From Thermoplasmata archaeon (GTDB lineage: Archaea; Thermoplasmatota; Thermoplasmata; Lutacidiplasmatales; UBA184), in NCBI GenBank assembly GCA_027365105.1, contig DAHXNZ010000008.1:129-64128 (forward strand): a DNA stretch of 64,000 bases. The letters are read 5' to 3'. This document shows positions 29,734 through 60,130 of this stretch, in pieces; position 1 is the first letter of the stretch; each line of letters opens with the position of its first letter. A program made the translations under genes and the position numbers. The notes under the pieces are model-generated. The model was not told the origin of the DNA. It saw only the letters and a program-made list of their open reading frames with translations, and searched no databases.

Positions 29734-31008
29734 TCAGAGTGGGGTCAGCGTAAAGAGGCAGCCATGGCGGGCGTGCTGACGGGGGTCCGGGCTGGAGACG
29801 GTCCATCGACCGCCGACACGGCTCTCGAAGAGCGTGGCCAACAGGCGGGGGCAGAGCACCCGGCCGATCTCCGGCGAGTCTTTGGTGCAGGCAAAGCAGC
29901 CTCGGGTCCGGAGCGTCAGCGGCCGTTCCTTGACCAGCGTCACGGATGACCCGGGCGGGCCCCCCTGCCTCGCTGCCAGGGAGGCGACGACCTGAGCCGG
30001 CGTCGTTCCCTCCAGCTCCTGGGCCAGCTGGCGGCCCGCCTGCCGCGCCACCGTATCGATCCAGTCGGGCAGGTTGAGATGGATCTCTGGGAGGCCGGTG
30101 GTCTTGAGGCCCAGGAGCGCAACCTCCCGGAGCCGGACCAGGGTGGTGCTGTTCCTCCCCGGCCGAAGGATCAGCGGCACCGGTGACGGAGCCTCGATCT
30201 CCACCAGCCGTTCCTCGAACGGCATCGCCGTGATCCAGCGGCTCCGGTGGTACTCCAGGGCCTGCCGGACAAACTCCGGGGACGTCGACCAGATTCCGAT
30301 GAGGCCCTCGTCGGGCCGGCCCGCCGATGCGGTCCCGCCGATAAACAGCAACGCCCCCGCCCGGTCGACCACGATCGACGGCCGGGCGATCGGCCCGCCC
30401 GCATGCCGGACGGTCGCAATCGCTCCAAAGTGGCGCGCCTCCGGGAGGTTGGAGGCGAGGACTTCGGTCAGCACCCGGACCACGACACCGCGGTCGCGGG
30501 CCGACCGAATCGCCCGGGCGACCGCACCGTCCAGGAACCGGGAGAGTTCGGCCGCCCCAGCCGTCACCTGGATCTCCCGCGAGGCGGCCCCCATCCGTTG
30601 CGAGAGGAACCGGTCGATGGCCCGGGCCCCCTCCAAGATGCCGAACCGTCGGGGGTCGGCGGCGTTCGACTCGAGGCGCTGGTCCTGCCACTCCTGCATC
30701 ACCGGGACCTTCGCCGATTCGAGCCGGCTCAGCTTGTCCCGGGTCCTCTGGATCCAGCGTTCGAAGAGGGACTCCGGGGGTAGCGCGGCCCACCGCATCG
30801 GTCGTCCCCCGACCGCGGAGAGCAATCCCTCCGAGGTCAACTGCCGGATCAGGCGGTAGGCCTCGACCCGATGAAGCGCTGTCATTCGGGCAAGCTCGCT
30901 CGCGGTCTGGGGACCCTCCCGGCAGGCGGCCAGGTAGATCCGGGCGGCGGGCTCAGCGACCCCGTGTTCCACGAGAAGCTCGCGGAGCCCAGACCCCGGT
31001 CGGCCCAT
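29734..31008 (-). CDS. TrmB-family transcriptional regulator with a C-terminal Cys-containing sensory domain (possibly V4R-like)
   Basis: N-terminal winged HTH typical of TrmB (AARIYLAACREGPQTASELARMTALHRVEAYRLIRQL). C-terminal GCFACTKD...CP motif. TATA-like TTTTTTATTCC lies ~30 nt upstream. Confidence 0.65.
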   Translation of the reverse strand: MGRPGSGLRELLVEHGVAEPAARIYLAACREGPQTASELARMTALHRVEAYRLIRQLTSEGLLSAVGGRPMRWAALPPESLFERWIQRTRDKLSRLESAKVPVMQEWQDQRLESNAADPRRFGILEGARAIDRFLSQRMGAASREIQVTAGAAELSRFLDGAVARAIRSARDRGVVVRVLTEVLASNLPEARHFGAIATVRHAGGPIARPSIVVDRAGALLFIGGTASAGRPDEGLIGIWSTSPEFVRQALEYHRSRWITAMPFEERLVEIEAPSPVPLILRPGRNSTTLVRLREVALLGLKTTGLPEIHLNLPDWIDTVARQAGRQLAQELEGTTPAQVVASLAARQGGPPGSSVTLVKERPLTLRTRGCFACTKDSPEIGRVLCPRLLATLFESRVGGRWTVSSPDPRQHARHGCLFTLTPL

Positions 31009-31081
31009 ACCGATACCGAGGGAGAGATGGAATAAAAAACGGAGCTACGGCCGTGCGCTCCTCGCCCGTCGGGCCGGTCGG

Positions 31082-31738
31082 TTAGAGGGCCGCCTCGAAG
31101 TCTTCCATCGTCAGGGAAAACGGAACCTCGACGCCCGGGGACCGCGCCCGGAGTACCTCGCGGGTCAGGAGCCAGTACACCGCGGCCAGGGAGACCCGCC
31201 CCTTGTTGTTGGCCGGAATCACGAGGTCGACGTCCCGGGTCTCGTTGTTGACATCGCACAGGCCCACGACCGGGATGCCGATGGAGACCGCCTCGCTCAG
31301 CGCCTGCTGATCGGTCGCCGGGTCGGTGACCACCAGGACCTTCGGTTCGAAGTATTCCGCCAAGCTTGGGTTGGTGAGGCATCCCGGGACGAACCGGTCG
31401 GCGAAGGAGACGGCACCAATCTGCTTTGCGAAGATCCGGACCGGCTTTTGACCATACTGCCGCTGGGAGACGGTCAGGATCTTGTCGGCCGGGAACCGGG
31501 CCAGGAAAGCGGCCGCGAGCCGGATTCGCCGGTCGGTCTCCCGGATATCGAGGACATGAAGCCCGTCGAAGCGGACCTTGTGGACAAACCGTCGCATGCT
31601 GGCCGACTTTTGCTGGGTCCCGATATGGACCCCCGAGGTCAGATAGGTATCTTCGGGAATCAGGAGCTCGCCGGGAGCGATGTCCTGGCCGTCGCCGGCT
31701 TGGGTAGAACTGGACTGCATCATCTCGTCTTCGGACAT
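31082..31738 (-). CDS. rps2: 30S ribosomal protein S2 (uS2)
   Basis: uS2 pattern (YLTSGVHIGTQQK...ILTVSQRQYGQKPV...PVVGLCDVNNETRDVDLVIPANNKG). Start at MSEDEMMQ (31738), immediately after the enolase stop. Confidence 0.9.
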   Translation of the reverse strand: MSEDEMMQSSSTQAGDGQDIAPGELLIPEDTYLTSGVHIGTQQKSASMRRFVHKVRFDGLHVLDIRETDRRIRLAAAFLARFPADKILTVSQRQYGQKPVRIFAKQIGAVSFADRFVPGCLTNPSLAEYFEPKVLVVTDPATDQQALSEAVSIGIPVVGLCDVNNETRDVDLVIPANNKGRVSLAAVYWLLTREVLRARSPGVEVPFSLTMEDFEAAL

Positions 31739-46855: not shown

Positions 46856-47281
46856 ATGTTCGGGAAGGAGGACGACCCGGCTTCGGAGGCGTACGACTCC
46901 GATGCCTTGGACGTCGTCCGACGTGAGCGCAAGGCGGCCCTCGAAGATCCCGGCCCCAGTTGGCGCGAATGGTTCCTCTTCAGCGGTGCGAAGTGGTGGA
47001 TCGGGCTCGGATTCCTGATCGTCGATGCCTGGGTCATCACCAGCTGGTTCGATCCCTTCAACCCGGTCGGGATCGGGCTCTCCCTTGCAGGCTGCCTCTA
47101 CCTTGAGTACCTTGCCTATGGCTATCTATGGTACCGCCCGGCCGAACTGAGGCCGTCGGGAAGCCCGCCATTCCGGCCGACCTGGTACCGCCTTCGGGAG
47201 TTTGGTCGCTGGACACCGGAGCAGGCGGAAGCGCTTGCCGGGAACCTCCGCCGACCCACGGTGCACCGGGACGACTTCTAG
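46856..47281 (+). CDS. hypothetical small membrane protein
   Basis: Start at MFGKEDDP (46856); acidic N-terminus then two TM helices (FLFSGAKWWIGLGFLIVDAWVITSWF; VGIGLSLAGCLYLEYLAYGYLWY). Confidence 0.4.
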   Translation: MFGKEDDPASEAYDSDALDVVRRERKAALEDPGPSWREWFLFSGAKWWIGLGFLIVDAWVITSWFDPFNPVGIGLSLAGCLYLEYLAYGYLWYRPAELRPSGSPPFRPTWYRLREFGRWTPEQAEALAGNLRRPTVHRDDF

Positions 47282-47659
47282 GACGGCTCGGCCCGCGTTT
47301 GAATGTGGGCGCCTGCCCATCTCGGCCGATACGGCCGGGCCCTCGTCCCTCGCGGCTGCGCCTTGGGTTGACCTCCGAGCGGCTGGGCCCCCGGTCTCGA
47401 AGCGACCCTTCCGAGCTCGTGGACTGATGACGCCGTGCCCCCCTCCCGGGCTCCAAGGCGGTGGAGCCGGCTGAGCCGGGTCTAGCTATCCAAAGCACGA
47501 GCCGTTCCAGCCCGACCGGACTGAACTGCCTGGAACACGACCTCATTACGTGGAGACCACCGACACACATGGATGCCCAACGAGCAAGCGAGACCCCGGT
47601 GGCAACGCCGGCCATGCTGCCCTCCAGGGAGAGGAAAGCAGCCATCGGACCGGCGTCTG

Positions 47660-47720
47660 AATCGTCCAAAAGAAAAGAGGGATGGAAAGGGTTAGGACCT
47701 CCCCCGAGGGGGAGGTCGGG
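47660..47720 (-). terminator. intrinsic archaeal terminator: GC hairpin followed by a U-tract, downstream of the giant SBP gene
   Basis: On the minus strand: GACCUCCCCC-ucg-GGGGGAGGUCC, then UAACCCUUUCCAUCCCUCUUUUCUUUU. Shares the UAACCCUUUCC...CUUUUCUUU element with the terminator at 56438-56512. Confidence 0.6.
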
Positions 47721-47739
47721 CCCGGATCTTGCTTCCGAC

Positions 47740-50700
47740 CTACAGCATTCCGTTCCCGCTCCACATGAACCAGAGCTGGCCGGGAGCCACGGGGTTCGTG
47801 TCAATGCCCGCAGGGTTGACCCACGAGGCATACGACCCCACGCCGATCGGCTGCGTGTAGTACATGTACAGCGCCAGGTTGTTCGCGATGTGTTCCACCA
47901 GGTTGTAGTAGAGTGTCCGCTCCGCCCCGGTCGGCATGCTGGCCGCGAGCTGGTTGGCCCAGTTCATGACCGAGTACGCCGTTCCCTGGCAGTTGTTCGG
48001 GACCAGGCCAGAGTTCGCCCAGTAGACGAGGCTGGCGAAGGTCAGGGCGTTGTCGGTCGGGCAGTTGTACGAACCGCCGAACTGCTGGCCCACGAAGGTC
48101 TGGTAGAGAGCGGCCGAGTAGGTGTAGCTGCCGTTGGGGTAGTAGTAGGGGGCCATGTAATCGGTGGGGTCGGGGTAGTCGGGCAGCCACCCATCGATCG
48201 CGGAGGTGAACGCGCTGGTTCCCGGGGGCGCCGTCGAGGCCACGACGATCTGGCTGAACGTCGGCTGCCAGAGGCTCGGGCTGATCGCTCCACCCGTCAG
48301 CTTGACGATCTCCGCGTTCCAGGCCTGGATGGCGAGCGCCAAGGTCTGGGCTCCCTGCTCACCGACCATCGGGAAGGTACAGGGGCTCGCGGCGGTGCAG
48401 CTCGCCAGCTCCGGATCGTAGTACGGGTTCCCGGGGGCGTTGGTCGTGATCATCTTCCACCAGTACGCCGCGCTTCCATTCACGCTCGCGTCGAAGCTGG
48501 GATCGTGCCAGGTGTTGGTGGTCAGGTTCAGGCCGGGCCAGCTGATGTTCGTCGGGTAGTAGTTCCCCATGAACTGGGGAATCGCTCCTCCAAAGTTCAG
48601 GTCCAGGTTGATCCCGTCCACCGTGTTGAGCGAGTTCAAACTGTAGGCGTAGGGGAACGCCTGGCTGAAGAACTCACGCAGCCCGACATACGAGAAGAAG
48701 TTCCCGGGTACGTTCACCGGCAGCCCCGACTGCTGGGCGGTCTGGGTGGGATCGAACTGGTAGTAGTAGCCCATCTCGAAGGTCTCCAGTGTCGGCACCG
48801 TCAGGAGGCCCACCTTGCCCTGCTGGACGAGGTTGAGAATGGTCGGGATGTCGGTCGGGTAGAACCCGGCGACATCGGCCTGGCCGGCGATGTACTGCTC
48901 GATCCCTCCGGTGGAGGACGGCTCCCAGGCCACGTTGACATGGGCGGCGTACTTGCCTGGGGCCGGGTAGCAGTTCGGCTGGCCGGCGCAGTTGGGCTGG
49001 GCGTAGGCCGGGTTGGCCTGCAGGATGTAGCCCTCGCCCTGGTCCACGCTCTGGAGGTAGTAGGGGCCGCTGCCCACCGGGTTCCAGCGGACCGACGGCT
49101 GAGGCGCATACGGGCTGGTGGCGCCCAGCTCGATCACATTGTCATACGCCGTCGGGCTGACCGATTTGAGGTAGTTCTGGAAGGCCGATGAGTTCGTGCT
49201 CGTCGCGCCGCCGGGGAGCAGGCAGGGGCCGTCACCGTGCGCGGCGGAGGTGCCGCTGAAGCCCGGAACGCTGGCTCCCTGAGCGGTGTACCAGCCGCAC
49301 GAGACGATGGCTCCGCCGTTGGCATCGCCCACCAGCTGGAGGAAGAACGGCCAGTCCGAGCCGCTTCCGTCCGCCTTGAAGGTGATGCATCCGTGCGCCT
49401 GGGTCATCGCGGTCTGCGGGCAGAACTGGGTGTCGTTGACCAGCATCGATCCGAGGATGTTCTGGGGGGTGTTGTTCCACGGAGCGTGGAGTCCGCCGTC
49501 CCAGTTGGGGTTGCCATACGGAAGCAGCGACTGGCCGATGATCCATCCGTTGTAGACGTACTCGCTCGGAGTCTGCAGCCACAGCAGCGTCCGGGTGATC
49601 GAGAACATCACATCCGAGGGGTAGACTCCCCAGGACGCATGGGTCGCCGGGTCGTAGAAGGAGGCATTGCCGCTGATGACAAAGGTCCAGTAGAGCGGCT
49701 GGTGGTTGACGATGGTCAGGAGGCTGCTGCCGTACTCGTTGACGCACTGCTGGGTCCCGGGAACGCAGTTCGCCAGGACCGGGACGAAGCCCGCCGTGCT
49801 GGTTCCGTTGTAGTTCACCAACGTCTCGAAGACATTGTTCATGACCTCGGCCCCGACCGTCTCGTAATCGACGGCGGGATCCAGGCTGGTGGCTCCACCC
49901 GGGGCAATCTCATAGGCGTCGATTGTTCCAGGGTGAGGGCTCACCGACTGCTTGCCTTGACAGTAGGCGCAGCCCAGGCTCGTACCCGCGGCGCCCACGT
50001 AGACGGTCCAGGTGTAGTTCTGGTAGATCGTCGTGCCACTCGGGGTGGTGATCGGGCCCACGAAGGTGAGCCAGTAGACCCCTGCCGTCGAGAAGGAGTA
50101 GGTCGCGCGCGCCTGGGTCGAGGTGGCGTTGCTCGAAACCAAGGTGCCGCCGGTCGACGTGATGGAGGGAGCGCCGGCCACATATCCCGGCGCGGTCGGC
50201 AGGCTCGAGTAGGACGCGCCCACCGAGATGGGTCCCTGACCGGCTTGGATCCAAGGCCGGGCGACAGTCGTGCCCACCAAGCCGTTCGAGAAGGTCGTGG
50301 CCAGCACGGGGTACTGCCCGCTCGCGCTGTTCGCGAGCGAGGGGACGACCTGTACCGGGAAGAGGTAGCCCGGACCCTGGTGGGTGACGCCGCTCACGTT
50401 CGCCGTGGCGTACATCACGTAGACCCCGAGGCCCGAGTAGGTGTGGGTGAAGGTCGGGGAGGTTTGGGTCGTGGACGTTCCATCGCCCCAGTAGACCGTG
50501 TAGCTCGAAGCCACACCGCCGCCCGAGAGCGAAACCGTCGCCGGAAGAGACTGGCCCTGCTGGAGTTGGATCATGCTCTGCCCGTAGCCTGGCTGGTAGG
50601 CCACGAAGAGCACGACGTTGTTCAGATTGGTCGTGGAGTGGCACACCGGGCTCGTCGCGGGCTGGCAGGTGGAGACGGTATTGCTACCCTGGCCCGCCAA

Positions 50701-50841
50701 CGCTCCGATCCCAACGTACCCGACTCCGCCGACGACGACAATGACCACAATCATGACCACTGCCGCCATCGTTGTCGAGATACCCCTTCGGCCCAAGCCG
50801 CGCGGCTGCGCGGTCGGGCTCTGTTCATCTGCTGTCTGCAT
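47740..50841 (-). CDS. oversized extracellular solute-binding protein (ABC family 5, Opp/Dpp-type) with an N-terminal signal anchor and a ~350-aa N-terminal extension
   Basis: Basic N-terminus plus TM (RRGISTTMAAVVMIVVIVVVGG), then a Ser/Thr/Gly/Tyr-rich beta-like region with paired Cys. A family-5 SBP-like core follows, with many N-x-S/T sequons. Convergent with the Opp permease/ATPase operon. Start taken at 50841, the first ATG after the predicted TSS. Confidence 0.7.
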   Translation of the reverse strand: MQTADEQSPTAQPRGLGRRGISTTMAAVVMIVVIVVVGGVGYVGIGALAGQGSNTVSTCQPATSPVCHSTTNLNNVVLFVAYQPGYGQSMIQLQQGQSLPATVSLSGGGVASSYTVYWGDGTSTTQTSPTFTHTYSGLGVYVMYATANVSGVTHQGPGYLFPVQVVPSLANSASGQYPVLATTFSNGLVGTTVARPWIQAGQGPISVGASYSSLPTAPGYVAGAPSITSTGGTLVSSNATSTQARATYSFSTAGVYWLTFVGPITTPSGTTIYQNYTWTVYVGAAGTSLGCAYCQGKQSVSPHPGTIDAYEIAPGGATSLDPAVDYETVGAEVMNNVFETLVNYNGTSTAGFVPVLANCVPGTQQCVNEYGSSLLTIVNHQPLYWTFVISGNASFYDPATHASWGVYPSDVMFSITRTLLWLQTPSEYVYNGWIIGQSLLPYGNPNWDGGLHAPWNNTPQNILGSMLVNDTQFCPQTAMTQAHGCITFKADGSGSDWPFFLQLVGDANGGAIVSCGWYTAQGASVPGFSGTSAAHGDGPCLLPGGATSTNSSAFQNYLKSVSPTAYDNVIELGATSPYAPQPSVRWNPVGSGPYYLQSVDQGEGYILQANPAYAQPNCAGQPNCYPAPGKYAAHVNVAWEPSSTGGIEQYIAGQADVAGFYPTDIPTILNLVQQGKVGLLTVPTLETFEMGYYYQFDPTQTAQQSGLPVNVPGNFFSYVGLREFFSQAFPYAYSLNSLNTVDGINLDLNFGGAIPQFMGNYYPTNISWPGLNLTTNTWHDPSFDASVNGSAAYWWKMITTNAPGNPYYDPELASCTAASPCTFPMVGEQGAQTLALAIQAWNAEIVKLTGGAISPSLWQPTFSQIVVASTAPPGTSAFTSAIDGWLPDYPDPTDYMAPYYYPNGSYTYSAALYQTFVGQQFGGSYNCPTDNALTFASLVYWANSGLVPNNCQGTAYSVMNWANQLAASMPTGAERTLYYNLVEHIANNLALYMYYTQPIGVGSYASWVNPAGIDTNPVAPGQLWFMWSGNGML

Positions 50842-50888
50842 GCGTTTAGCACCCCTCTCGGGGCCTGAAAACGCCACTCAAAAGGTGG

Positions 50889-50896
50889 TATATATA
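50889..50896. promoter_or_regulatory. palindromic TATA box TATATATA shared by the divergent rpe (+) and giant SBP (-) genes
   Basis: TATATATA is flanked by AAAGGTGG on the plus strand and AAGCC on the minus strand. rpe ATG (50918) lies 22 nt downstream on plus; the first SBP ATG (50841) lies ~48 nt downstream on minus. Confidence 0.6.
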
Positions 50897-50917
50897 GGCT
50901 TACGCGACTCCCTCTTC

Positions 50918-51622
50918 ATGGCCACCCTGCCGACCCGACCAATCCGGATCGCCCCTTCGCTGCTGAGCGCCGACTTCGCCAATCTCGGAGGCGCCATCCG
51001 GGAGGCGGAGGCGGCGGGGGTCCAGGGTTTCCACCTGGATGTGATGGACGGACACTTCGTCCCGAACATCTCCTTCGGCCCGGCCCTGGTCGCGGCCGTT
51101 CGCCGCCGCACCCGGCTGCCGTTGGACATCCATCTCATGGTCGAGCGCCCCGAACGGTTCCTCGAGCCGTTCCGGCGGGCGGGGGGAACCCGGTTCACCT
51201 TCCACGTCGAGGCGACCTCCGAACCGGTGGAGCTGGCGCGATCGATCCGGGCCTTGGGGGGGGAGGCCGGCGCGGCCCTCCGGCCGGAGACCCCGATCGC
51301 CCGGGTCGGGCCTTGGATCCGGGAGGTCGACGCCCTGCTCGTGATGACGGTGAACCCGGGGTTTTCCGGGCAAAAGTTCCTGCCGGAGGGCCTTGCCAAG
51401 ATCCGGGAGGCCCGGGCGGTGTCCGATCGGGCCGGCGGTCGGGTCGACATCGGTGTCGACGGCGGGATCACGCCCGAAACGGGTCGGGATGCGGCCCGGG
51501 CCGGGGGCACGTTCTTCGTCTGCGGGAATGCGGCCTTCGAAGGGGGAGAGATTGCGGCGAACCTGGCCCGACTCCGACAGGCGATCCGCCAGGGGGTCGA
51601 GGAGCGACATGCTCTACCGTAA
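50918..51622 (+). CDS. rpe: ribulose-phosphate 3-epimerase
   Basis: RPE pattern (IAPSLLSADFANLG...HLDVMDGHFVPN...DIHLMV...VMTVNPGFSGQKF...GVDGGI). Palindromic TATATATA at 50889-50896 lies ~22 nt upstream of the ATG, so leaderless. Confidence 0.85.
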   Translation: MATLPTRPIRIAPSLLSADFANLGGAIREAEAAGVQGFHLDVMDGHFVPNISFGPALVAAVRRRTRLPLDIHLMVERPERFLEPFRRAGGTRFTFHVEATSEPVELARSIRALGGEAGAALRPETPIARVGPWIREVDALLVMTVNPGFSGQKFLPEGLAKIREARAVSDRAGGRVDIGVDGGITPETGRDAARAGGTFFVCGNAAFEGGEIAANLARLRQAIRQGVEERHALP

Positions 51623-53390
51623 CCTGGTGGCGGTCTACGAGCAGCTGGAGGGCACCCGGCAGCACTCGGATGTTCGGCAGCTCCTGACCGAGTTATTCCG
51701 GTCCGCGCCGACGAACCTTCTCCCGAGCATCCTCTACCTTTCCCAAGGGCTCCTGCGACCCGAGTTCGAGGGAGTCGAGCTGGGCGTCGGGGGGGCCCTG
51801 GCCCGCAAGGCGGTGGCGCAATCGGCCGGCGTCGACGACCACCAGGTCCATCGGGAGGTGTCCGTCTCCGGTGACCTCGGAATCACCGCGGAGCGACTGC
51901 GCTCGGGACAGCGCCGGCTCGAACCGCTCGAGCCGCTGGAGATCGAGGAGGTCTACGCGGGATTGATGGCAATCGCTGCGGCCCGAGGCAGCGGAGCGCA
52001 GGAGGAACGGCTGCGACGGCTCACCGGGCTTCTCGCCCGCGCCGGGCCGGTCGAAGCACGCTACCTGATCCGATTCGTACTGGGCAGCCTGCGCATCGGG
52101 ATCCGGGAGATGACCCTGATCGACGCCCTGGCCCATGCCTTTGGCGACGGATCGAAGGCCGCCCGGGCCCGGATTGAGAGAGCCTTCAATCTCTGCAGCG
52201 ACCTCGGATGGATCGCCGAGGAGCTGAGCCGGCATGGCCTCGACGCGCTCGATGCCGTGACGATCCAGGTCGGCCGGCCGATCCGGCCGATGCTCGCCGA
52301 ACGGGCGCGGAGCCTCTCCGAGGCGCTGCACCGGATGCACGGGACGGCCGCGCTGGAGTTCAAATACGACGGGCTTCGGGTCCAGGCCCATGTGGCCCGC
52401 GACGGCTCCGTTCGGCTCTTTTCCCGGCGGCTCGAACGGATCGAGGCCCAGTTCCCCGACCTGGTGGATGCGCTTCCGGCGGCCGTACGGCACCGGCCCG
52501 CCGTCCTGGAGGGGGAGTGTGTCCCCATCGACCCGGACACCGACGAGATCCGGCCGTTCCAGGAGATCTCCCGACGGCGGGGAAGGATCTACGACCTCGA
52601 CCGGCTCCGGTCGGAGGTCCCGGTCTGCTTCTTCCTCTTCGATCTGCTGCTCGACGGGACCGAACCGACCCTCGACCGCCCGTTCCCGGAGCGACGGGAG
52701 CGGCTCGAGGCGGCGGTGACCCCGGGCCCCTCGGTTCGCCTGGCGCGGCAGCTGAGGGTCGATTCCGCTGAACCGGCCCGGGACTTCTTCGACCTGGCCT
52801 TAGCGGAAGGAGCCGAAGGGATCATGGTGAAGTCCCTAGCCCCCGAGAGCACCTACCGGGCCGGGGCGAGGGGGTTCTGGTGGATCAAGTACAAGAAGGA
52901 GTACGCCGAAGGGCTCTCCGACTCCCTCGACGGGGTCGTGGTCGGGGCGTTCCATGGTCGGGGTCGCCGGGCGGGCCGGTTCGGGGCGTTCCTCCTCGCG
53001 TGTTACAATCCGGAACGCGACGCGTTCGAGTCGTTCTGCAAGGTGGGGACCGGCTTCGACGATGCGGCCCTCGCGGAGATGCCGCGACGCCTGGAGCCGT
53101 GGGCCAGCGACGCCCGCCCCGCGAAGGTCGATACCGGGCTCGAGCCGGATCGATGGTTCCGGCCCGGCCTCGTCCTCGAGGTCCGAGGGGCCGAACTGAC
53201 CCTGAGCCCGGTCCACCGCGCCGACTTCGGGGCGATCCGGCCCGGCAGCGGCTTCGCGCTCCGGTTCCCGCGCTTCACGGGTCGCATCCGGGAGGAAAAG
53301 GCCCCGACAGATGCCACCTCCAGCGGCGAACTGCGCCGGATGTACCGTCAGCAGGTTCGCCAGAGCCCCGCCGCCTCCGGCCCCGCCTGA
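51609..53390 (+). CDS. lig: ATP-dependent DNA ligase
   Basis: Adenylation motif I KYDGLR (EFKYDGLRVQAH), motifs III-VI (FLFDLL, EGIMVK, WIKYKKEY). Start MLYRNLV with GGAG 5 nt upstream; overlaps the rpe 3' end by 14 nt. Confidence 0.9.
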   Translation: MLYRNLVAVYEQLEGTRQHSDVRQLLTELFRSAPTNLLPSILYLSQGLLRPEFEGVELGVGGALARKAVAQSAGVDDHQVHREVSVSGDLGITAERLRSGQRRLEPLEPLEIEEVYAGLMAIAAARGSGAQEERLRRLTGLLARAGPVEARYLIRFVLGSLRIGIREMTLIDALAHAFGDGSKAARARIERAFNLCSDLGWIAEELSRHGLDALDAVTIQVGRPIRPMLAERARSLSEALHRMHGTAALEFKYDGLRVQAHVARDGSVRLFSRRLERIEAQFPDLVDALPAAVRHRPAVLEGECVPIDPDTDEIRPFQEISRRRGRIYDLDRLRSEVPVCFFLFDLLLDGTEPTLDRPFPERRERLEAAVTPGPSVRLARQLRVDSAEPARDFFDLALAEGAEGIMVKSLAPESTYRAGARGFWWIKYKKEYAEGLSDSLDGVVVGAFHGRGRRAGRFGAFLLACYNPERDAFESFCKVGTGFDDAALAEMPRRLEPWASDARPAKVDTGLEPDRWFRPGLVLEVRGAELTLSPVHRADFGAIRPGSGFALRFPRFTGRIREEKAPTDATSSGELRRMYRQQVRQSPAASGPA

Positions 53391-53472
53391 GGCTCCTCGG
53401 GTCGGCCGGGCCGGCTGCCCCTCCGCCCAAAGGCATATGAAGGCGGCCGCGCGTCCACCGATAGGGAATCCG

Positions 53473-53778
53473 ATGCTCGTCGAAATGACCGAATACCTGG
53501 GACGACAGATCTATACCCCCGACGGACGCCTCCTGGGCGAGGTGGACAACGTCGTCGTCGATGTGGACGGCGCCAAGATCGAGGGGCTCTACGTCGATGA
53601 GACAGCGGCGGTCCTCGTCGAGGAATCCCGACCCGTCAGCGTCCCCTACCGTTGGGTGAGTGCCGTGAACGATGTGATCCTGCTCAAGTACTTCCCTCAG
53701 CGCGTTTCGCTCAAGAAGGGGACGCCCCGGGCGGACGAGGAGCCCGACGCGGAACCGACGCCGACGGCCGCCCGTTAG
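53473..53778 (+). CDS. PRC-barrel domain protein
   Basis: About 100 aa with a PRC-barrel-like pattern (YLGRQIYTPDGRLLGEVDNVVVDVDGAKIEGLYV...). An alternative ATG is at 53437. Confidence 0.55.
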   Translation: MLVEMTEYLGRQIYTPDGRLLGEVDNVVVDVDGAKIEGLYVDETAAVLVEESRPVSVPYRWVSAVNDVILLKYFPQRVSLKKGTPRADEEPDAEPTPTAAR

Positions 53779-53781
53779 GGC

Positions 53782-53898
53782 GCGGGGATAGCCAAGCCGG
53801 GCAACGGCGCAGGACTTAAACGCCGGAGGTCGCCAGCGACCCCGTGCCGAGAGATCCTGTCGCGAAGGCGTTCGCCGGTTCGAATCCGGCTCCCCGCA
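53782..53898 (+). tRNA. tRNA-Leu (anticodon UAA) containing a 33-nt intron (53821-53853) at the canonical 37/38 position; CCA not encoded
   Basis: Acceptor GCGGGGA/UCCCCGC, D-arm GCCAAGCCGGGCAACGGC, anticodon stem CAGGA/UCCUG with loop CUUAAAA, long variable arm UCGCGAAGGCGUUC and T-arm GCCGG-UUCGAAU-CCGGC, discriminator A. The fold matches the archaeal tRNA-Leu consensus arm by arm. Confidence 0.85.
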
Positions 53899-53943
53899 AC
53901 GGATTCGAGCGGGTCCCGGGGGTCGCTCCGGCGCAGCGCCCGT

Positions 53944-54539
53944 TGGTCCTCCGGTTGGCGAAACTGCCCGGACTGCCGCGCCCGGACCCTTCGCTGGAAC
54001 AGGTGCCGACCCCGCCCGAACGGGCGGCGGAGCTCCTCCTCGCCGCGTGGCATCGAGGCGACATCGAAGGACGATCGGTCGCCGATCTGGGGTCCGGGAC
54101 CGGGGTCCTGGCGCTGGGAGCGGCCCTCCTGGGGGCCGGCCGGGTCGAAGGGTGGGAGGTCGATCCGACGGCGGTCGAGATCGCCCGTCAATGGGCGGTC
54201 CGGTGGACCCTGCCGGCCGAGTTCCATGCCGCCGAGGTCCGGGAGGCGAGCGGCCCGGCCGACACGGTCGTCATGAATCCCCCGTTCGGCGCCCAACGGG
54301 CCGGTGCGGACCGGGAGTTCTGGACGGCGGCGTTCCGGCTCCGGCCCCGGCGGGTCTACGCCTTCGCGCTCACCGCGTCGCGAAGCTTTATAGCTCGCAG
54401 AGCCAATGAAGCCGACGCCCGCATCGTCGATCTCCACCCGGTGCCGTGGGAGCTTCCGGCATTGTTCCCGCACCATCGGGCCCCCTCGCGGTCCCTGAAG
54501 GTCGATCTGTGGGTGCTGGAGCAGAGAGCATCCCCATGA
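53944..54539 (+). CDS. N6-adenine-type RNA methyltransferase (COG2263-like predicted RNA methylase)
   Basis: SAM motif I (VADLGSGTGVLALGAA) and NPPF catalytic motif (VMNPPFG). Start uncertain (TTG/GTG just downstream of the tRNA; 53944 TTG used). ATGA overlap with csl4. Confidence 0.6.
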
Positions 54540-55138
54540 GCGGTTCCCCCGAGTCCCCGAAGCTGGTCATTCCCGGAGAGTACCTGGGCGCCGCCGAGGA
54601 GTTTGTCCCCGGCCGCGGAACCTACGAAGATTCGGGCCGGATCTACGCGTCGATCCTGGGGATCTCCCATGTCGACCCGGCGGACCGGAGCGTCCACGTT
54701 GTCCCGCGCAACGGCATCCCCCAGATCTCGGACGGGGATCTGGTCTACGCCCGGGTCGACGAACTCAAGTCGGCGATGGCGATCTGCACGGTCCTCGCGA
54801 CGGCGGGGAGCCGTCGGCCGGTGCCCGGCGATCCCGAGGGGACCGTCCACATCTCGAAGGCGCGGGAGGGATACACCGAGTCGCTCGGGAGCGAGTTTGC
54901 GGTCGGGGACATCCTGCTGGCCCGGGTCCTCCAGTCGACCCCGTCGGTGAAACTCACGACGGCGCCCGCCAATCTGGGGGTCATCTCGGCCCGCTGCCAG
55001 GTCTGTCACGGGTTGATGGGCCGCCAGGCGGATCAGTTCGAGTGCCCGAGATGCGGCCACCGGGAGCATCGCAAGATGGCGCAGGGCCAGCCCCTCCTCC
55101 TCCTCCCGGGCGAAGCTACGCTTCATGGTGACGCGTAG
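54536..55138 (+). CDS. csl4: exosome complex RNA-binding protein Csl4
   Basis: N-terminal domain (KLVIPGEYLG), S1 domain (GDLVYARVDE...) and C-terminal zinc ribbon (CQVCHG...CPRCGH). Confidence 0.8.
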   Translation: MSGSPESPKLVIPGEYLGAAEEFVPGRGTYEDSGRIYASILGISHVDPADRSVHVVPRNGIPQISDGDLVYARVDELKSAMAICTVLATAGSRRPVPGDPEGTVHISKAREGYTESLGSEFAVGDILLARVLQSTPSVKLTTAPANLGVISARCQVCHGLMGRQADQFECPRCGHREHRKMAQGQPLLLLPGEATLHGDA

Positions 55139-56354
55139 CCCCGACGAGCGGGCCCTGGCGCGCTGGGTGCGCGCCCACAACCGTTGGCGGGGGCGGGAGG
55201 TCTTCAACCTGCTCCCGAGCGAGAACGCCGTCTCCCCCACCGCGAAGCGTTACCTGGCCAGCGACCTGGCGGGCCGCTACACGCTGCCGATCTCGACCAC
55301 CTTCCACGGCGAGGCGATCGACAACAGTTATGCCGGCACCCGCTACACCGATCGGATCGAGGAACTGGGGAACCGGGCCGCCGCCCGACTCTTCCACGGG
55401 CGGTTCGCCACGGTGCGCCCCCTCTCCGGGCACATCGCGGCGCTTTCGGCGATGGCGCCGCTGCTTCCCTCGGGATCAAAAATTCTCGCGATTCCACCGG
55501 AGCAGGGTGGGTACGACGGGTACGCCCCCGGTTTCATCCCGGCACTGTTCCAGTGGGAGGTCAAACCGCTACCGGCCGGCGGACCGGGCGGTTCCGTGCG
55601 CCTCGAACCGGCCCTGCAGATGATCCGGCAGGAGCGCCCCGACGCGGTACTGCTGGGGCAGAGCTTCTTTCTCTTTCCGTACCCGGTCCGGGAAATTGCC
55701 GAGGAAGTGCACCGGTCCGGCGGTCTTCTCTTCTACGACGCCTCCCATGTCCTCGGGCTCATCGCCGGGGGGCTCTTCCAGGATCCGATCCGGGAAGGGG
55801 CGGACCTCCTCTTCGGAAGCACGCACAAGTCGTTCTTCGGGCCCCAGGGCGGGCTCCTGGTGACCGACCGGGAGGAGCTCTTCCAGCGGATTGACCCGGC
55901 CCTGGTCTGGAGGATCTTCGACAATGCCCACTGGAACCGCATCGCGGCCCTGACCCAGACCCTGTTGGAGTTCGAACGGGTGGGGGCAGAGTACGCCCGG
56001 ACGGTCGTGGAGAGCAGCCAACGGCTCGGCCATGAGCTCTCCGATCTCGGCTGGCCGATGGTGGCCGAGGCCCAGGGGTTTTCCCGGTCCCACCAGATCC
56101 ACCTGGATCTTAGCCGGTTCCGCGAACGGTTCGGCTGCGGTCCGGGCGAACTGGCCCGAAGGCTCGAACCCCAGGGTCTGATCCTGGACCTCGTCGGCCG
56201 ACTCGGAACGGCCGAGATCAGCCGTCTCGGAGTTCTTCCCGACGAAATGGGGCGGCTGGCCCGGCTCCTCAAGTCGGGAGGGATCGACCGTCGGGACATC
56301 CGCGCCGAGGTTCGGCAGTGGCGGTCGGAGTACCCGACCCTGCGGTTCGAGTGA
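55125..56354 (+). CDS. serine hydroxymethyltransferase-like PLP-dependent enzyme
   Basis: SHMT-like N-terminus (FNLLPSENAVSP), PLP-lysine region (GSTHKSFFGPQGGLLV). Divergent from canonical GlyA, so the call is at family level only. Confidence 0.7.
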   Translation: MVTRSPDERALARWVRAHNRWRGREVFNLLPSENAVSPTAKRYLASDLAGRYTLPISTTFHGEAIDNSYAGTRYTDRIEELGNRAAARLFHGRFATVRPLSGHIAALSAMAPLLPSGSKILAIPPEQGGYDGYAPGFIPALFQWEVKPLPAGGPGGSVRLEPALQMIRQERPDAVLLGQSFFLFPYPVREIAEEVHRSGGLLFYDASHVLGLIAGGLFQDPIREGADLLFGSTHKSFFGPQGGLLVTDREELFQRIDPALVWRIFDNAHWNRIAALTQTLLEFERVGAEYARTVVESSQRLGHELSDLGWPMVAEAQGFSRSHQIHLDLSRFRERFGCGPGELARRLEPQGLILDLVGRLGTAEISRLGVLPDEMGRLARLLKSGGIDRRDIRAEVRQWRSEYPTLRFE

Positions 56355-56437
56355 CCTGGTACCGGCGACTCCCAACTCCGCCCCCCAGGGGGCACCCTGC
56401 ACGACCCCGACCCGCGTGTGACCCAGAGAACCCACGG

Positions 56438-56512
56438 GCTCAAGAAAGAAACAGAAAGAAAAAGGGGGAAGGGAAAGGGTTAGGTCGGTGGAGAGGTCCC
56501 CTCCACCGACAG
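56438..56512 (-). terminator. intrinsic archaeal terminator: 10-bp GC hairpin followed by a long U-tract, downstream of the giant surface-protein gene
   Basis: On the minus strand: GUCGGUGGAG-gggaccu-CUCCACCGAC, then CUAACCCUUUCCCUUCCCCCUUUUUCUUUCUGUUUCUUUCU. Also downstream of the convergent SHMT-like gene. Confidence 0.6.
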
Positions 56513-56533: not shown

Positions 56534-59500
56534 CTACGAGCTGATCCCGTGCTCCGTCTTGGCGTGTTCCTTCAGTTCCTCAGGGGTGGCGAAAGACCGG
56601 TTGCAGACGTTGCACTGGTTCGCCGGCGCGGTGCTCGACTGCTGCTGCCAGGCCTGGGCCGGAGTGCTCTTCGGGGTCGCCATCATCGAGCGCGCCAGAA
56701 GGAGCGCCACGATCATGCCGATGATCAGACCAACCACCAGCAGGATGGTTCCCGAGGAGCCGGCGTTGAGTCCCTTGAACAGCGAGCCGTTGCTGTAGAC
56801 TGTGGTGTTCTGGTAGACCGTTCCGCCCGACGAGACCACCGTCAGGTCACCGTGGATGCTCATGGTCCCGTAGCTGGTCACCAAGGTCAGCACCCAGGGG
56901 TAGACACCGGCGTTGGCAGCGTACCAGACCGCCGTCGTCGGAACGGTCGGGCTGGCCCAGGCCAAGCTCGAATTGAACAGGACCACCGTCGTGGTCGGCG
57001 CCGACACCACGATCTCCACGCTTTGGACGTACTGAGCCGTATAGTACGCCGTGAACGAGATGTTTCCGGTCGACATGCTCGTACTGGGGCTCAGCAGGGC
57101 GAGCGCGAGCGGGCTGAAGATGATGGAGGTCGTCTGGCTAGTGGTGGTGTTCAACTCCCCAAAGACGCTCACATAGGTGGTGAGCTGGGCCGCGTGGAGG
57201 GTCAGGAGCGGGCAGTTCAGCAGCGCCTGGGTGCCGATCACGATCGGGGTCACCGCGAACGAGTAGGAGGTGATGCCGGGCGTGATCGAGGCGTTCTCCG
57301 ACGCGAAAGCACAGGTCGAACCGGTCAGACTGTCGCTGATCTGCATCCACAGGCTCACGTTCGCCTGGCTGATCCCGACTCCTACAACGCTGATGGTCAC
57401 GTTGTCGAAGAACGGCAGCATGGTATAGTTCCCGAGCACCGTGGTGGTGACAACGCTGGCATACCCATACGCCACGGACTGAGACGACGGGCCGCTGACG
57501 ACCAGCATCCCCGAGGAGATGTTGACCCCATAGCCGGGCACCGAGTCGATGGTGAACGGATAGGTCCCGTTCTCCTGATAGAGGACCAGCGAAGACGGTC
57601 CGGCCGAAGTCGTCCCGCTCGCACTCACGCCGTCCAGGGTGACCCCCCATCCAATACCCGCCGGAAGGCCGGTCTCGGTGAAGGTCACCGGTTCAAGCGG
57701 AAGGTAGGTCAGCGCCATTGCATCGCCTCCGTAGGTGATGAGTCCGCCATCGGTGTAAACCACGCCGAACGGGTTCGCCGGGGTTCCGTAGTTCGCCCAG
57801 AAATTTCCAGCGACCCCGAAGCCGCCCAGGATGTTCTCGACCGGGAAGACCGACGAGAGGTTCCAACTGTTGGTCGTGAAGAGGGCGAACGCACCCGTGT
57901 AGATGCTGAACGTCGGCATGATCGCGGGCTCCTGGTAGACGCCGAAGTAGTTGTTGATCACCTCAGTGCCGTTCTGGTCGAGGAGCATTCCCATCAACGG
58001 GAAGGTGTAGGGCGGGAAGTTGAGAGGGTTCGGGGCGCTCGGAGCGGAGCCGTTGATAAAGTTGTTTTCAACGAGGTCGTTGGTCCCGCCGAAGAGAATC
58101 AGCGCCTGGCTCTGGGTGTTGAAGGTGTTCCCATAGATGTAGTCCCCGGAAGAGTTCCAGAAGAGCACGTTCGAGTAGGTCGAGAAGAACGGCATGGAGT
58201 AGGCCTCGACGTAGTAGGAGGCCCAACCCGAAATCTGGTAACTGCCCGTCAACTCGAGGTTCTGGACCTCAAAGAACTGCATCTGGAGGTTGTTGGTTGC
58301 CGGGAAGCCGTAGATCTTCTGGTAGAAGAGCGCGTAGACTCCCGAGAACGGCGCGAGGTAAGAGAGCGCCGGAGCGGAGATGATCGTGTAGGCGGTGGTG
58401 TTCACGAAGAAGACCCCGTCAAAGACCGGGTAGGTGTAGTCGTTGACGACCCCGAAGGACGCGTTGAGCAGGCTGCCCTGGGAACTCGGCATCACATAGG
58501 GGCTGGTGGAAGTCCCGCTTCCCGAGACCGCAAGAGCGCCGAGCTGCGCGTTCGAGAACGCATAGAGCGGCGTGTAGACCTCAGTGTTGCTCACGAACAG
58601 GGTCACCGACAAGGTCGCCGGGATTCCCGCCGTCAGGGTGAACGTCCCGGAAGCCTGGCTGTAGCCGGACAGTTCCACGAGGTAGGAGTAGGTGCCCGGG
58701 TTGAGCAGGTAGGTCAGCGACGAAGTCGCACCGGCCACGACCACGCCGGTGGAGGCCGTCGGGGCCCACTGGGCATTCGAGGCATTGACCCCCGCCCCGT
58801 TGTTGACGAGGAAGAGGAACGCGTTGCTCGGGTCGAGCGTCACGGTGAGGGTCGTTGTCGTCTGAGGGGTGCCCCCGACCGCATTCGACACGTTCCAGAG
58901 CCCCTGCACGATCGACGCCCCGGCGTTGATCATCGCCTCGGGCATCCCGTTCGCACCGGTCTCCCAAGAGACCGCGGCACCGGCGACCGTCTCACCGGTC
59001 TCACCCCCGACATTGTAGGCCGAAGGTACTGACTGGTAGGAGGAGGTCGTGGTGTCCCAGTACATGAGCGACATGGTCGCATTGCCGGAGATGACGTTGG
59101 TGCTGCTGCCTCCACCGGGGCCGCCCATGATCATCTCGAAGTCGTTGGGCAGTCCGAGCGGGTTGTACCCGTACCCATCGGCCTGGTACATCGAGGCGGG
59201 AGCGGGGGTCCCGCCGGCCACCGTCGAGTTGAAGACGACGTAGTCGTAGGAGCCGCTGACCGTCTTGCCGGCGCTGTTGGTCACGGAGTAGTTGAAGAAG
59301 ACCGCGTTTCGCCCGCCGATCACTGTCGAATTGAGGTAGGAAGTCAGCGAGAACGGATAGGAGACCGTCATCGGAGCGGAGTAGGCGTAGTAGAACTGAG
59401 TCCCCACCTGGGTCCCGTTGGGCCCGTGAGCGTAGAAGACATTGGGCGAGAGGTAGCTCGCCGGGCTCGAGAAGTTCCAGACATTGTCCTCGAACTGGAG

Positions 59501-60130
59501 CTCGCCCGTGTTGATGTTGTAGGTGACCACATTCTGGGTCCAGAACTGGTAGCTGGCGCTACCAAAGAGTGACACACCGACGTCCACGGCATTCAGCTGA
59601 ACCCCGTAGAGCTGGGGGTTCGCCGTATCGAAGTAGAGCACCTGCAGGTTGCTCGGGGCAAAGGTTCCCGCAACGCTGGTGGTGTTCAGCATGTAGGGGG
59701 TGATCGTCCCGGAGTTGTTCTCCAGACCGAACTCACCGATACCCATCGGGGCCGGGCCGCCCTGGTAGGTGAGGCGCACATGGCCGTTGGCCAGCGTCGG
59801 GTTGAGGTTGTTGAAGTCCGGGAGGTAGACGGCACGTGCCGGAACGCCCAACGAAGCCGCGGTCTTCAGGATCTGCTCGGCCCGCCCGGAAAGGGTCGGG
59901 GCCTTGGTGTTCAAGGCGTGGGTGACGCTCGGGGCCGTCGAGGCCGTGGAGGGTGAGGGAACGGCCGGTCCCGCCGTCGCCCCGGAGGCGGAAGGGAGCG
60001 GCGCAGCCCCGATTCCGGCAACGGGAGTGACGCTGAACGCGGCGACCGACATGATCGCTACGACGGCCACAAGTCCGATCGTTAGCTTCTTCCACGCGCC
60101 CGGCGGTAGTCTATACATGGCGGCTCCCAT
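56534..60130 (-). CDS. giant secreted cell-surface glycoprotein (S-layer-like) with a C-terminal TM anchor and a cytoplasmic C2H2 zinc-finger tail
   Basis: Signal peptide (MGAAMYRLPPGAWKKLTIGLVAVVAIMSVAAF), ~1100 aa of Ser/Thr/Asn/Gly/Tyr-rich sequence with >50 N-x-S/T sequons, then a TM helix (ILLVVGLIIGMIVALLLA). The tail CNVCNRSFATPEELKEHAKTEH fits C-x2-C-x3-F-x5-L-x2-H-x4-H. Start taken at 60130. Confidence 0.8.
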   Translation of the reverse strand: MGAAMYRLPPGAWKKLTIGLVAVVAIMSVAAFSVTPVAGIGAAPLPSASGATAGPAVPSPSTASTAPSVTHALNTKAPTLSGRAEQILKTAASLGVPARAVYLPDFNNLNPTLANGHVRLTYQGGPAPMGIGEFGLENNSGTITPYMLNTTSVAGTFAPSNLQVLYFDTANPQLYGVQLNAVDVGVSLFGSASYQFWTQNVVTYNINTGELQFEDNVWNFSSPASYLSPNVFYAHGPNGTQVGTQFYYAYSAPMTVSYPFSLTSYLNSTVIGGRNAVFFNYSVTNSAGKTVSGSYDYVVFNSTVAGGTPAPASMYQADGYGYNPLGLPNDFEMIMGGPGGGSSTNVISGNATMSLMYWDTTTSSYQSVPSAYNVGGETGETVAGAAVSWETGANGMPEAMINAGASIVQGLWNVSNAVGGTPQTTTTLTVTLDPSNAFLFLVNNGAGVNASNAQWAPTASTGVVVAGATSSLTYLLNPGTYSYLVELSGYSQASGTFTLTAGIPATLSVTLFVSNTEVYTPLYAFSNAQLGALAVSGSGTSTSPYVMPSSQGSLLNASFGVVNDYTYPVFDGVFFVNTTAYTIISAPALSYLAPFSGVYALFYQKIYGFPATNNLQMQFFEVQNLELTGSYQISGWASYYVEAYSMPFFSTYSNVLFWNSSGDYIYGNTFNTQSQALILFGGTNDLVENNFINGSAPSAPNPLNFPPYTFPLMGMLLDQNGTEVINNYFGVYQEPAIMPTFSIYTGAFALFTTNSWNLSSVFPVENILGGFGVAGNFWANYGTPANPFGVVYTDGGLITYGGDAMALTYLPLEPVTFTETGLPAGIGWGVTLDGVSASGTTSAGPSSLVLYQENGTYPFTIDSVPGYGVNISSGMLVVSGPSSQSVAYGYASVVTTTVLGNYTMLPFFDNVTISVVGVGISQANVSLWMQISDSLTGSTCAFASENASITPGITSYSFAVTPIVIGTQALLNCPLLTLHAAQLTTYVSVFGELNTTTSQTTSIIFSPLALALLSPSTSMSTGNISFTAYYTAQYVQSVEIVVSAPTTTVVLFNSSLAWASPTVPTTAVWYAANAGVYPWVLTLVTSYGTMSIHGDLTVVSSGGTVYQNTTVYSNGSLFKGLNAGSSGTILLVVGLIIGMIVALLLARSMMATPKSTPAQAWQQQSSTAPANQCNVCNRSFATPEELKEHAKTEHGISS

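Follow-up and report, generated by a model that had tools for sequence, protein, structure and literature searches.

A conserved decamer next to a GC-rich hairpin recurs behind envelope-protein genes of uncultured soil and peat Thermoplasmata and probably marks transcript 3' ends

In metazoans, replication-dependent histone mRNAs end in a stem-loop followed by ACCCA and are cut by CPSF73, whose archaeal homologue is the termination nuclease aCPSF1 (FttA). In bacteria, the DNA uptake sequence (DUS) of Neisseria, the uptake signal sequence (USS) of Haemophilus and the repetitive extragenic palindromes (REP) of enterobacteria are short genome-wide repeats embedded in terminators. Archaeal terminators, as mapped by Term-seq, are U-rich tracts with no required hairpin (PMC8716108, PMC7237163), and these tracts are bound by two KH domains of aCPSF1 (PMC8716108). 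In the GC-rich Haloferax, a T-stretch followed by C is seen at termination, some of the sites have hairpins upstream, and within genes there is a weak AGATC motif (PMC7237163); KH domains of other proteins read C-rich strands of the AACCCTA type (PMC1885661). As now described, archaeal termination involves a U-tract and the general factor aCPSF1/FttA, with neither a sequence-specific signal nor a hairpin requirement. Here we describe a composite element found in a 64,000-nt stretch of DNA from an uncultured Thermoplasmata archaeon (contig DAHXNZ010000008.1; this whole stretch is hereafter the window). It consists of a GC-rich hairpin, the decamer AACCC(T/C)TTCC (also written AACCCUUUCC; as RNA, CCAACCCUUUCCU) and a pyrimidine-rich tract, lies behind two large surface-protein genes, and turns up again at the ends of genes across a group of uncultured Thermoplasmata from soil and peat.

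The window is archaeal DNA with 69% G+C, and the closest relatives of its proteins are found solely in metagenome-assembled genomes (MAGs) of uncultured 'Thermoplasmata archaeon' from soil and peat. Both copies of the element lie on its minus strand, to which the element coordinates refer, 8.8 kb apart and each in a convergent intergenic region. Pfam confirmed the identities that a first-pass annotation of this DNA had given to the genes upstream. Gene A (47740..50841, minus strand; stop TAG at 47742-47740) encodes by its translation an Opp-type extracellular solute-binding protein (SBP) of 1033 aa with an N-terminal membrane anchor and PKD and SBP_bac_5 domains, and all its homologues are in 'Thermoplasmata archaeon' MAGs. 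Gene B (56534..60130, minus strand; stop TAG at 56536-56534) is an open reading frame (ORF) for a thermopsin-family (PF05317) surface protease or glycoprotein of ~1198 aa, with a C-terminal transmembrane (TM) helix and a cytoplasmic C2H2 zinc-finger tail. A GC hairpin had been placed about 23 nt past the stop of both genes, and this was correct: hairpin A (47696..47717; GACCTCCCC-CTCG-GGGGAGGTC) is a stem of 9 bp closed by a 4-nt loop and begins 22 nt past the stop, while hairpin B (56484..56510; GTCGGTGGAG(GG)-loop-(CT)CTCCACCGAC) has 10–12 bp and starts 23 nt past it, both being apparent from the sequence and predicted by RNAfold. Each stem is directly abutted by CTAACCCTTTCC (motif A, 47684..47695; motif B, 56472..56483), which includes the core decamer AACCCTTTCC (47693-47684 and 56481-56472). 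These motif copies are predicted to be single-stranded and lie 45–53 nt past the stop on the sense strand. Pyrimidine/T tracts follow, ATCCCTC TTTT C TTTT at 47668..47683 for element A and CTTCCCCC TTTTT C TTT C TG TTTC TTTC TT at 56442..56471 for element B.

The earlier description of this pair as one near-identical 3' element of 60–75 nt was only partly upheld: the two copies do share an exact 13-mer, CCTAACCCTTTCC, and a similar pyrimidine/T tract, but the sequences of their hairpins are unrelated, as are the 22–23 nt between stop and hairpin. The 13-mer occurs at two places in the 64-kb window, in elements A and B only. A profile hidden Markov model of the element, built on 69 related non-redundant sites, likewise matched these two alone (E ~0.03–0.04; next best match in the window, E = 6). 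With Rfam 15, a tRNA was the sole match in the window at the gathering score, and loci A and B gave no meaningful match at E ≤ 1.

To place the element in its lineage, we fetched related loci (labelled L001 and so on) by synteny through SBP homologues and added 80 loci from a protein-guided scan of metagenome contigs, which after removal of redundancy gave 78 loci with a combined length of 1.04 Mb; all of them were gathered around SBP genes, so gene-class proportions in this sample are biased. In genomes with SBPs 91%, 86% and 59% identical to that of the window, AACCCTTTCC stands on the sense strand behind both the SBP gene and the thermopsin/zinc-finger-tail gene; at 43% SBP identity both positions carry the variant AACCCCTTCC, and the decamer AACCC(T/C)TTCC persists behind orthologues down to ~40% protein identity (~40–45%). 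When the SBP 3' intergenic regions of four genomes (SBPs 59–91% identical) were aligned, C-AACCCTTTCC was essentially the one invariant block, the rest being unalignable. Hairpins at orthologous positions are kept with their sequence wholly replaced, as seen in the stems GACCTCCCC, GGCCTCCCC, GCTCCGCGGC, GCGCCCCGGTC and GGCGGTC. For larger collections, a 14-mer pattern gave at least 120 matches, which is chance level, and was replaced by the 18-base pattern ACCAACCCTTTCCTNTCCC, which recovers mostly orthologues. A scan of one genome per species across 185,579 species with this pattern yielded 15 matches: six in MAGs of Thermoplasmata, each of them on the 3'-sense side of a gene, and nine in unrelated bacteria, inside genes or without such context and close to chance expectation. 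Viral contigs scanned for the motif returned two chance-like matches only.

Within the 1.04 Mb of related DNA the decamer clearly exceeds random occurrence, with 49 copies of AACCCTTTCC, whereas words made by permuting its letters (200 permutations) average 1.1 copies. Forty of the 49 lie within 150 nt on the 3'-sense side of a called stop, where 0.015 would be expected; most of the remaining copies are attributable to errors of the crude gene caller and likewise follow a long ORF. Convincing instances are always on the sense strand, 9–68 nt past the stop. The logo of the 69 non-redundant sites has a core of AACC, then C (64 of 69), T or C (49 and 20 sites, respectively), TT and CC, preceded by a preferred C at position -2 and by C or G at -1. 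The 25 nt after the motif are 70% pyrimidine and T-rich from +16 to +23; a run of four or more T (T4+) occurs within 35 nt of the motif at 35 sites, the others having just the TTT of the motif and C/T-rich sequence. A second candidate word, CCACCGATAGG, present in several 5' regions, was not enriched over permutations and was dropped. The motif appears to resemble the anti-Shine-Dalgarno sequence at the 16S 3' end rather than to complement it.

The hairpin is tightly coupled to the motif, its last stem base falling 0–3 nt before it in 55 of the 69 sites. The 36 nt upstream of the motif fold with a mean energy of -18.0 kcal/mol, compared with -10.4 kcal/mol in 299 motif-less 3' flanks, and with a median shuffle z-score of -1.94 versus -0.11 in these control flanks (P ~1e-16). 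Stems are nearly all Watson–Crick, with 41 G-U among 715 pairs. MAFFT and RNAalifold applied to 23 motif-anchored sites gave no consensus pairs, stems of unlike length and sequence being out of register, and structural support therefore comes from per-sequence folding against shuffles and control flanks and not from formal covariation. At L155 (9509-9560) two motif copies stand in tandem: the first (AACCCCTTCC) makes up the 5' arm of a hairpin, and the second (AACCCTTTCC) comes after that hairpin. Of 370 genes followed by 40 nt or more of non-coding DNA, 53 carry the motif; of the 317 motif-less flanks, 19 have any T4+ run, and five of these 19 are near-variants of the motif. Classical T-tract terminators are rare in this GC-rich clade, and most of what can be recognised as terminator-like signal in the lineage thus belongs to this module.

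Genes carrying the element include many orthologues and paralogues of the Opp-type SBP and the family of zinc-finger-tailed surface glycoproteins and thermopsins, as well as a second thermopsin (L208), a sedolisin-type protease (L013), a PKD surface protein (L007), a zinc-ribbon-tailed surface protein (L171) and a secreted 418-aa protein (L166). Overall, the motif stands behind 52 of 93 genes for S/T/N-rich, mostly membrane-anchored proteins and behind 4 of 437 others, three of these four being SBPs just below the S/T/N threshold. Motif-bearing genes show somewhat stronger codon bias (effective number of codons 34.6 vs 36.6, P ~1e-3) and a higher G+C content at third codon positions (0.90 vs 0.86, P ~1e-7). 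The proposal of the first-pass annotation that the element belongs to highly expressed envelope genes thus holds in one half, strong enrichment behind genes for surface and secreted glycoproteins, and needs correction in two respects. The association is not exclusive, as a cytoplasmic SSB (OB fold, long Gly-rich tail) carries hairpin and motif in four genomes, and the element is not simply a mark of high expression, as the gene for ribosomal protein S2 in the window and a ribosomal operon end without it. The SSB gene, located just upstream of the SBP gene (element sites L152 398, L153 426, L154 8686 and L188 1026), is the only clear non-envelope gene with the element. At the end of the S2 gene (31000-31082, minus strand) there is a plain T6 run (CCGTTTTTTATTCC) and no AACCC motif; this run probably also serves as TATA box for the gene that follows, which encodes a TrmB-family regulator.

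A further line of evidence comes from several contigs of 3.1–3.3 kb, obtained from independent assemblies, that contain the SBP gene alone and end shortly past it. They begin inside the 5' untranslated region (UTR), downstream of the TATA box of the genomic contigs, and may well be assembled transcripts. One ends exactly at ...AACCCTTTCC (L194), one 1 nt past the motif (L164), one 17 nt past it, behind TTCTTTTCT (L232), and one in the pyrimidine tract that comes immediately behind a variant motif (AACCCCTTCT; L175), which places all four ends 0–19 nt past the motif. In two others (L193 and L204) the sequence turns back on itself at the hairpin; this is an artefact of assembly or cDNA and carries no information on the 3' end. 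These ends suggest, without amounting to proof, a signal that forms transcript 3' ends.

On balance, we consider that the element is probably a composite signal, specific to this lineage, that acts on the sense transcript as a terminator or in 3'-end formation. The part of the first-pass annotation that proposed a common terminator or 3' UTR module agrees with a conserved site found behind orthologues and unrelated genes alike, in sense orientation and accompanied by hairpin and pyrimidine/T tract. A word of 10 nt that is kept invariant amid sequence turnover, and can stand on either side of the hairpin, argues for a sequence-specific reader and not for purely thermodynamic release; since aCPSF1 binds terminator tracts through KH domains and KH domains can recognise AACCCTA-type strands, aCPSF1 is our proposed reader. 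In the mechanism we envisage, RNA polymerase would first transcribe the stable GC hairpin, starting ~10–45 nt past the stop, then the single-stranded decamer AACCC(U/C)UUCC, usually 0–3 nt after the stem, and then a C/U-rich stretch, often with runs of U4–U9. The invariant decamer would be bound by a sequence-specific factor, most plausibly through the pair of KH domains at the N terminus of aCPSF1/FttA, and this factor together with the U-rich tract would end the transcript ~0–20 nt after the motif. The hairpin, left at the finished 3' end, would shield the mRNA from 3'-to-5' decay and probably also aid pausing. Such a signal would serve a subset of stand-alone genes, mostly for abundant envelope and secreted proteins (Opp-type SBPs, thermopsins, sedolisin, zinc-finger-tailed glycoproteins) plus SSB, and would shield convergent or downstream neighbours from read-through.

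Several observations weigh against a terminator. About half of the sites have no T4+ run, so that conservation is higher for the motif than for the canonical termination signal. At a minority of loci (L136, L176, L211, L227, L167, L168) the hairpin comes after the motif and not before it, a flipped order that fits a protein-binding site better than a fixed geometry of hairpin followed by release. Folding is equal on both strands (mean energy difference -0.01 kcal/mol), so the structure by itself does not prove a function in the sense RNA. The motif is missing at the end of the ribosomal protein S2 gene in the window and at the RpoN end of a ribosomal operon (L007), which indicates that it is not a general strong terminator and leaves room for a regulon-type role. 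The transcript ends are those of the transcript-like contigs, whose status was deduced from their length, gene-only content and missing promoter, and aCPSF1 is suggested as reader of the decamer by analogy.

The chief alternative makes the decamer a post-transcriptional 3' UTR element, bound by an RNA-binding protein or a small RNA, with the hairpin and U-tract as an ordinary adjoining terminator; its partner would then co-regulate the stability, translation or membrane localisation of mainly envelope and nutrient-scavenging mRNAs. We regard this as rather unlikely. It would account for the strong association with S/T/N-rich proteins, for the spread over at least five unrelated families (SBP, thermopsin/zinc-finger-tail, sedolisin, PKD protein and zinc-ribbon-tail protein) and for the ribosomal gene ends without the motif, and it is in keeping with a motif that is predicted to be single-stranded, is conserved above the T-tract and can change its order relative to the hairpin. 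The SSB copies in four genomes, however, speak against a pure secretome tag, and the association statistics carry the sampling bias described above. No complementary partner GGAARGGGTT was found in ~1 Mb, apart from one unexplained case in L012, and the tight coupling of hairpin and pyrimidine/T tract and the contig ends past the motif are what a 3'-end signal predicts. The L012 case is an exact CCAACCCTTTCC (478-489, minus strand), antisense in a called ORF for a 6-TM membrane protein whose N-terminal 130 aa may be non-coding; it is the single exact copy without gene-end context. The terminator and 3' UTR readings are not mutually exclusive, and an RNA-stability or localisation signal, as the first-pass annotation had also suggested, is a possibility.

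Function at the level of DNA appears very unlikely; here a DNA-binding protein would occupy the element as a boundary or insulator, as a roadblock terminator or as a regulator, and the inverted repeat would act as DNA. Hairpin stability is strand-symmetric and the stems are almost entirely Watson–Crick paired, both compatible with a DNA palindrome, but the decamer is asymmetric and, with hardly an exception, runs in the direction of the upstream gene, the palindromes differ wholly between sites and hence cannot be read as a shared DNA site, and the motif is present in the transcript-like contigs. Highly improbable is an archaeal promoter (TFB recognition element (BRE) and TATA box) for an unannotated downstream or antisense RNA, although the element is intergenic and contains T, and ~380 nt of unassigned DNA lie past element A. 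Promoters of this lineage read CTATATATAC, GCCTAAAAAGG or GGCATAAGAAGG and stand 20–30 nt before the start, and the motif has no such T/A alternation. Gene A has the consensus TATA box CTATATATAC (50897-50888, minus strand) and Gene B the BRE/TATA GAAAAGCCTAAAAAGG (60155-60140, minus strand; ATG at 60130). At both window loci, transcripts started at the motif would enter the convergent genes in antisense, and the DNA past the element is not conserved and has no Rfam match; we rejected the promoter for its unlikeness to lineage promoters and its facing convergent genes. Scarcely credible, and also rejected, is the duplication remnant that the first-pass annotation had considered, or equally gene conversion or a small mobile repeat of the REP or miniature inverted-repeat (MITE) kind, for although an identical 13-mer occurs in two copies 8.8 kb apart and motif and hairpin are found at the edge of a tRNA-Ile insertion in related genomes, only 10–13 nt are common between unrelated hairpins and flanks, the upstream genes encode unrelated proteins, the copies all have one orientation to the gene with no terminal repeats or target duplications, and the motif is kept at orthologous sites with SBPs 40–60% identical while the neighbouring DNA is randomised.

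The surroundings of the two elements were annotated as well. Past element A lies a convergent gene for a small membrane protein (46856..47281, plus strand), 82% identical to a gene at L001 13495-13926. The spacer between them (47282-47667, ~380 nt) contains no convincing ORF and no Rfam match, and is not conserved when compared with the orthologous spacers in L001, L004 and L006. Past element B, the ORF list and Pfam identify a convergent SHMT gene (55125..56354, plus strand), the stop of which is 88 nt from the end of tract B, an arrangement that is the same in L001, L006 and L013. The tRNA gene found with Rfam (53782-53898, plus strand; 117 nt, 45 bits) has an intron and was missed by ARAGORN. 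The tail of Gene B (56534-56620, minus strand) is a cytoplasmic C2H2 zinc finger after the membrane helix (...CNVCNRSFATPEELKEHAKTEHGISS*), and this tail also ends many shorter surface glycoproteins of related genomes (L006 3147-4292, L155 1372-2553, L156 1721-4339, L181 5060-6817 and others); it is unusual for an archaeal surface protein to have a C2H2 finger of eukaryote type on its inner side.

Among the related loci, the RNase P RNA gene at L010 (6880-7402, minus strand; Rfam 182 bits) has CTAACCCCTTCC with a hairpin ~149 nt downstream on the same strand, and the element may end non-coding transcripts too. In related genomes, tRNA-Ile follows the SBP gene. At L167 (12210-17292) an insertion of ~5 kb interrupts this tRNA and has AACCCCTTCC, a hairpin and TTTCTTCC at its left edge, and L168 (8480-8900 and 13080-13156) has a duplicated SBP C-terminal fragment and a tRNA fragment; the insertion looks like an integrative element using the gene-end motif. 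An ORF resembling TnpB/Cas12f (OrfB_IS605, Cas12f1-like_TNB) lies between the DUF1616 and SRP54 genes at L004 16110-17252 and L005 16082-17224; it is found in the 86%-identity relative and is not at that place in L001, L006 or L013.

Several properties set the decamer apart from the current picture of archaeal termination: it is invariant and outlives the full replacement of the intergenic DNA around it, it goes together with a hairpin of free sequence, and it serves a gene subset only, in a GC-rich clade poor in plain T-tracts. These features imply a specific reader, either protein or RNA, and would show how gene ends are marked in GC-rich archaea. A concrete hypothesis is that the KH domains of aCPSF1 bind CCAACCCUUUCC. 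More tentatively, and as a possibility rather than a likelihood, decamer and hairpin could together be a sequence-specific archaeal 3'-end signal, read by the aCPSF1 KH domains or by a dedicated RNA-binding protein, that defines an envelope and protein-scavenging regulon. If so, its functional counterparts would be the eukaryotic poly(A) signal or the histone stem-loop/ACCCA site. Should the restriction to a gene class hold genome-wide, the element would be a rare case of a regulon defined by the 3' UTR in Archaea. In practice, annotation of uncultured Thermoplasmata from soil and peat can use it to recognise where genes for highly expressed envelope proteins end.

Compared with known systems, the element is in some respects like the oligo-U terminators used with aCPSF1/FttA in Methanococcus maripaludis, Haloferax volcanii, Sulfolobus and Methanosarcina (PMC8716108, PMC7237163), which also lie in sense orientation past the stop and commonly have pyrimidine-embedded T/U runs, sometimes several in series; the window copies have TTTT C TTTT (A) and TTTTT C TTT (B). 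These terminators have no conserved sequence beyond the U-run, whereas in our element the non-U AACCCYUUCC is invariant and is, with a strong hairpin, the best conserved part. Unlike them, the element occurs in one clade, at a gene subset, and with T4+ in about half of the sites. Bacterial intrinsic (Rho-independent) terminators also have a GC-rich hairpin followed by U-containing sequence tens of nt past the stop, and share with the element a hairpin whose structure is kept while its sequence is free. In the element, however, a conserved C-rich spacer of 12–20 nt lies between stem and U-run: the stem is followed by CTAACCCTTTCC and a further 4–8 nt before the first T4 run, and not by a U-run at 0–2 nt. 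A standard scan for bacterial hairpin-plus-T terminators found neither window copy because the U-run does not abut the stem. In addition, the host is archaeal, and the RNA–DNA hybrid at the motif would be C/G-rich and not weak.

The 3' end of histone mRNAs is alike in having a conserved hairpin and, a few nt behind it, a short A/C-rich single-stranded motif (CC-AACCC-UUUCC in the element) at a specific mRNA class, a likeness by analogy only. Its stem sequence is conserved, which that of the element is not, and for the element there is no sign of cleavage at the motif, of a stem-loop-binding protein or of a U7-like guide RNA. DUS, USS and REP resemble the element as over-represented words of 10–12 nt just behind genes and beside inverted repeats; DUS and USS, however, themselves form the inverted repeat and also occur in both orientations and inside genes, whereas the word described here is outside the stem, single, in sense orientation and restricted to certain genes. 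No PCBP-like regulator is known to us from archaea. The C-rich 3' UTR elements read by the KH-domain proteins PCBP and hnRNP K, which stabilise specific mRNAs, also consist of a single-stranded AACCC(U)-type motif by a pyrimidine-rich tract, but that system is eukaryotic and its likeness to the element is one of sequence only. A literature search for AACCCYUUCC found no report of it, returning primers and unrelated matches only. Most likely, then, the element is a previously undescribed gene-end signal of the terminator type, whose lineage-specific invariant word goes beyond the U-tract model of archaeal termination.

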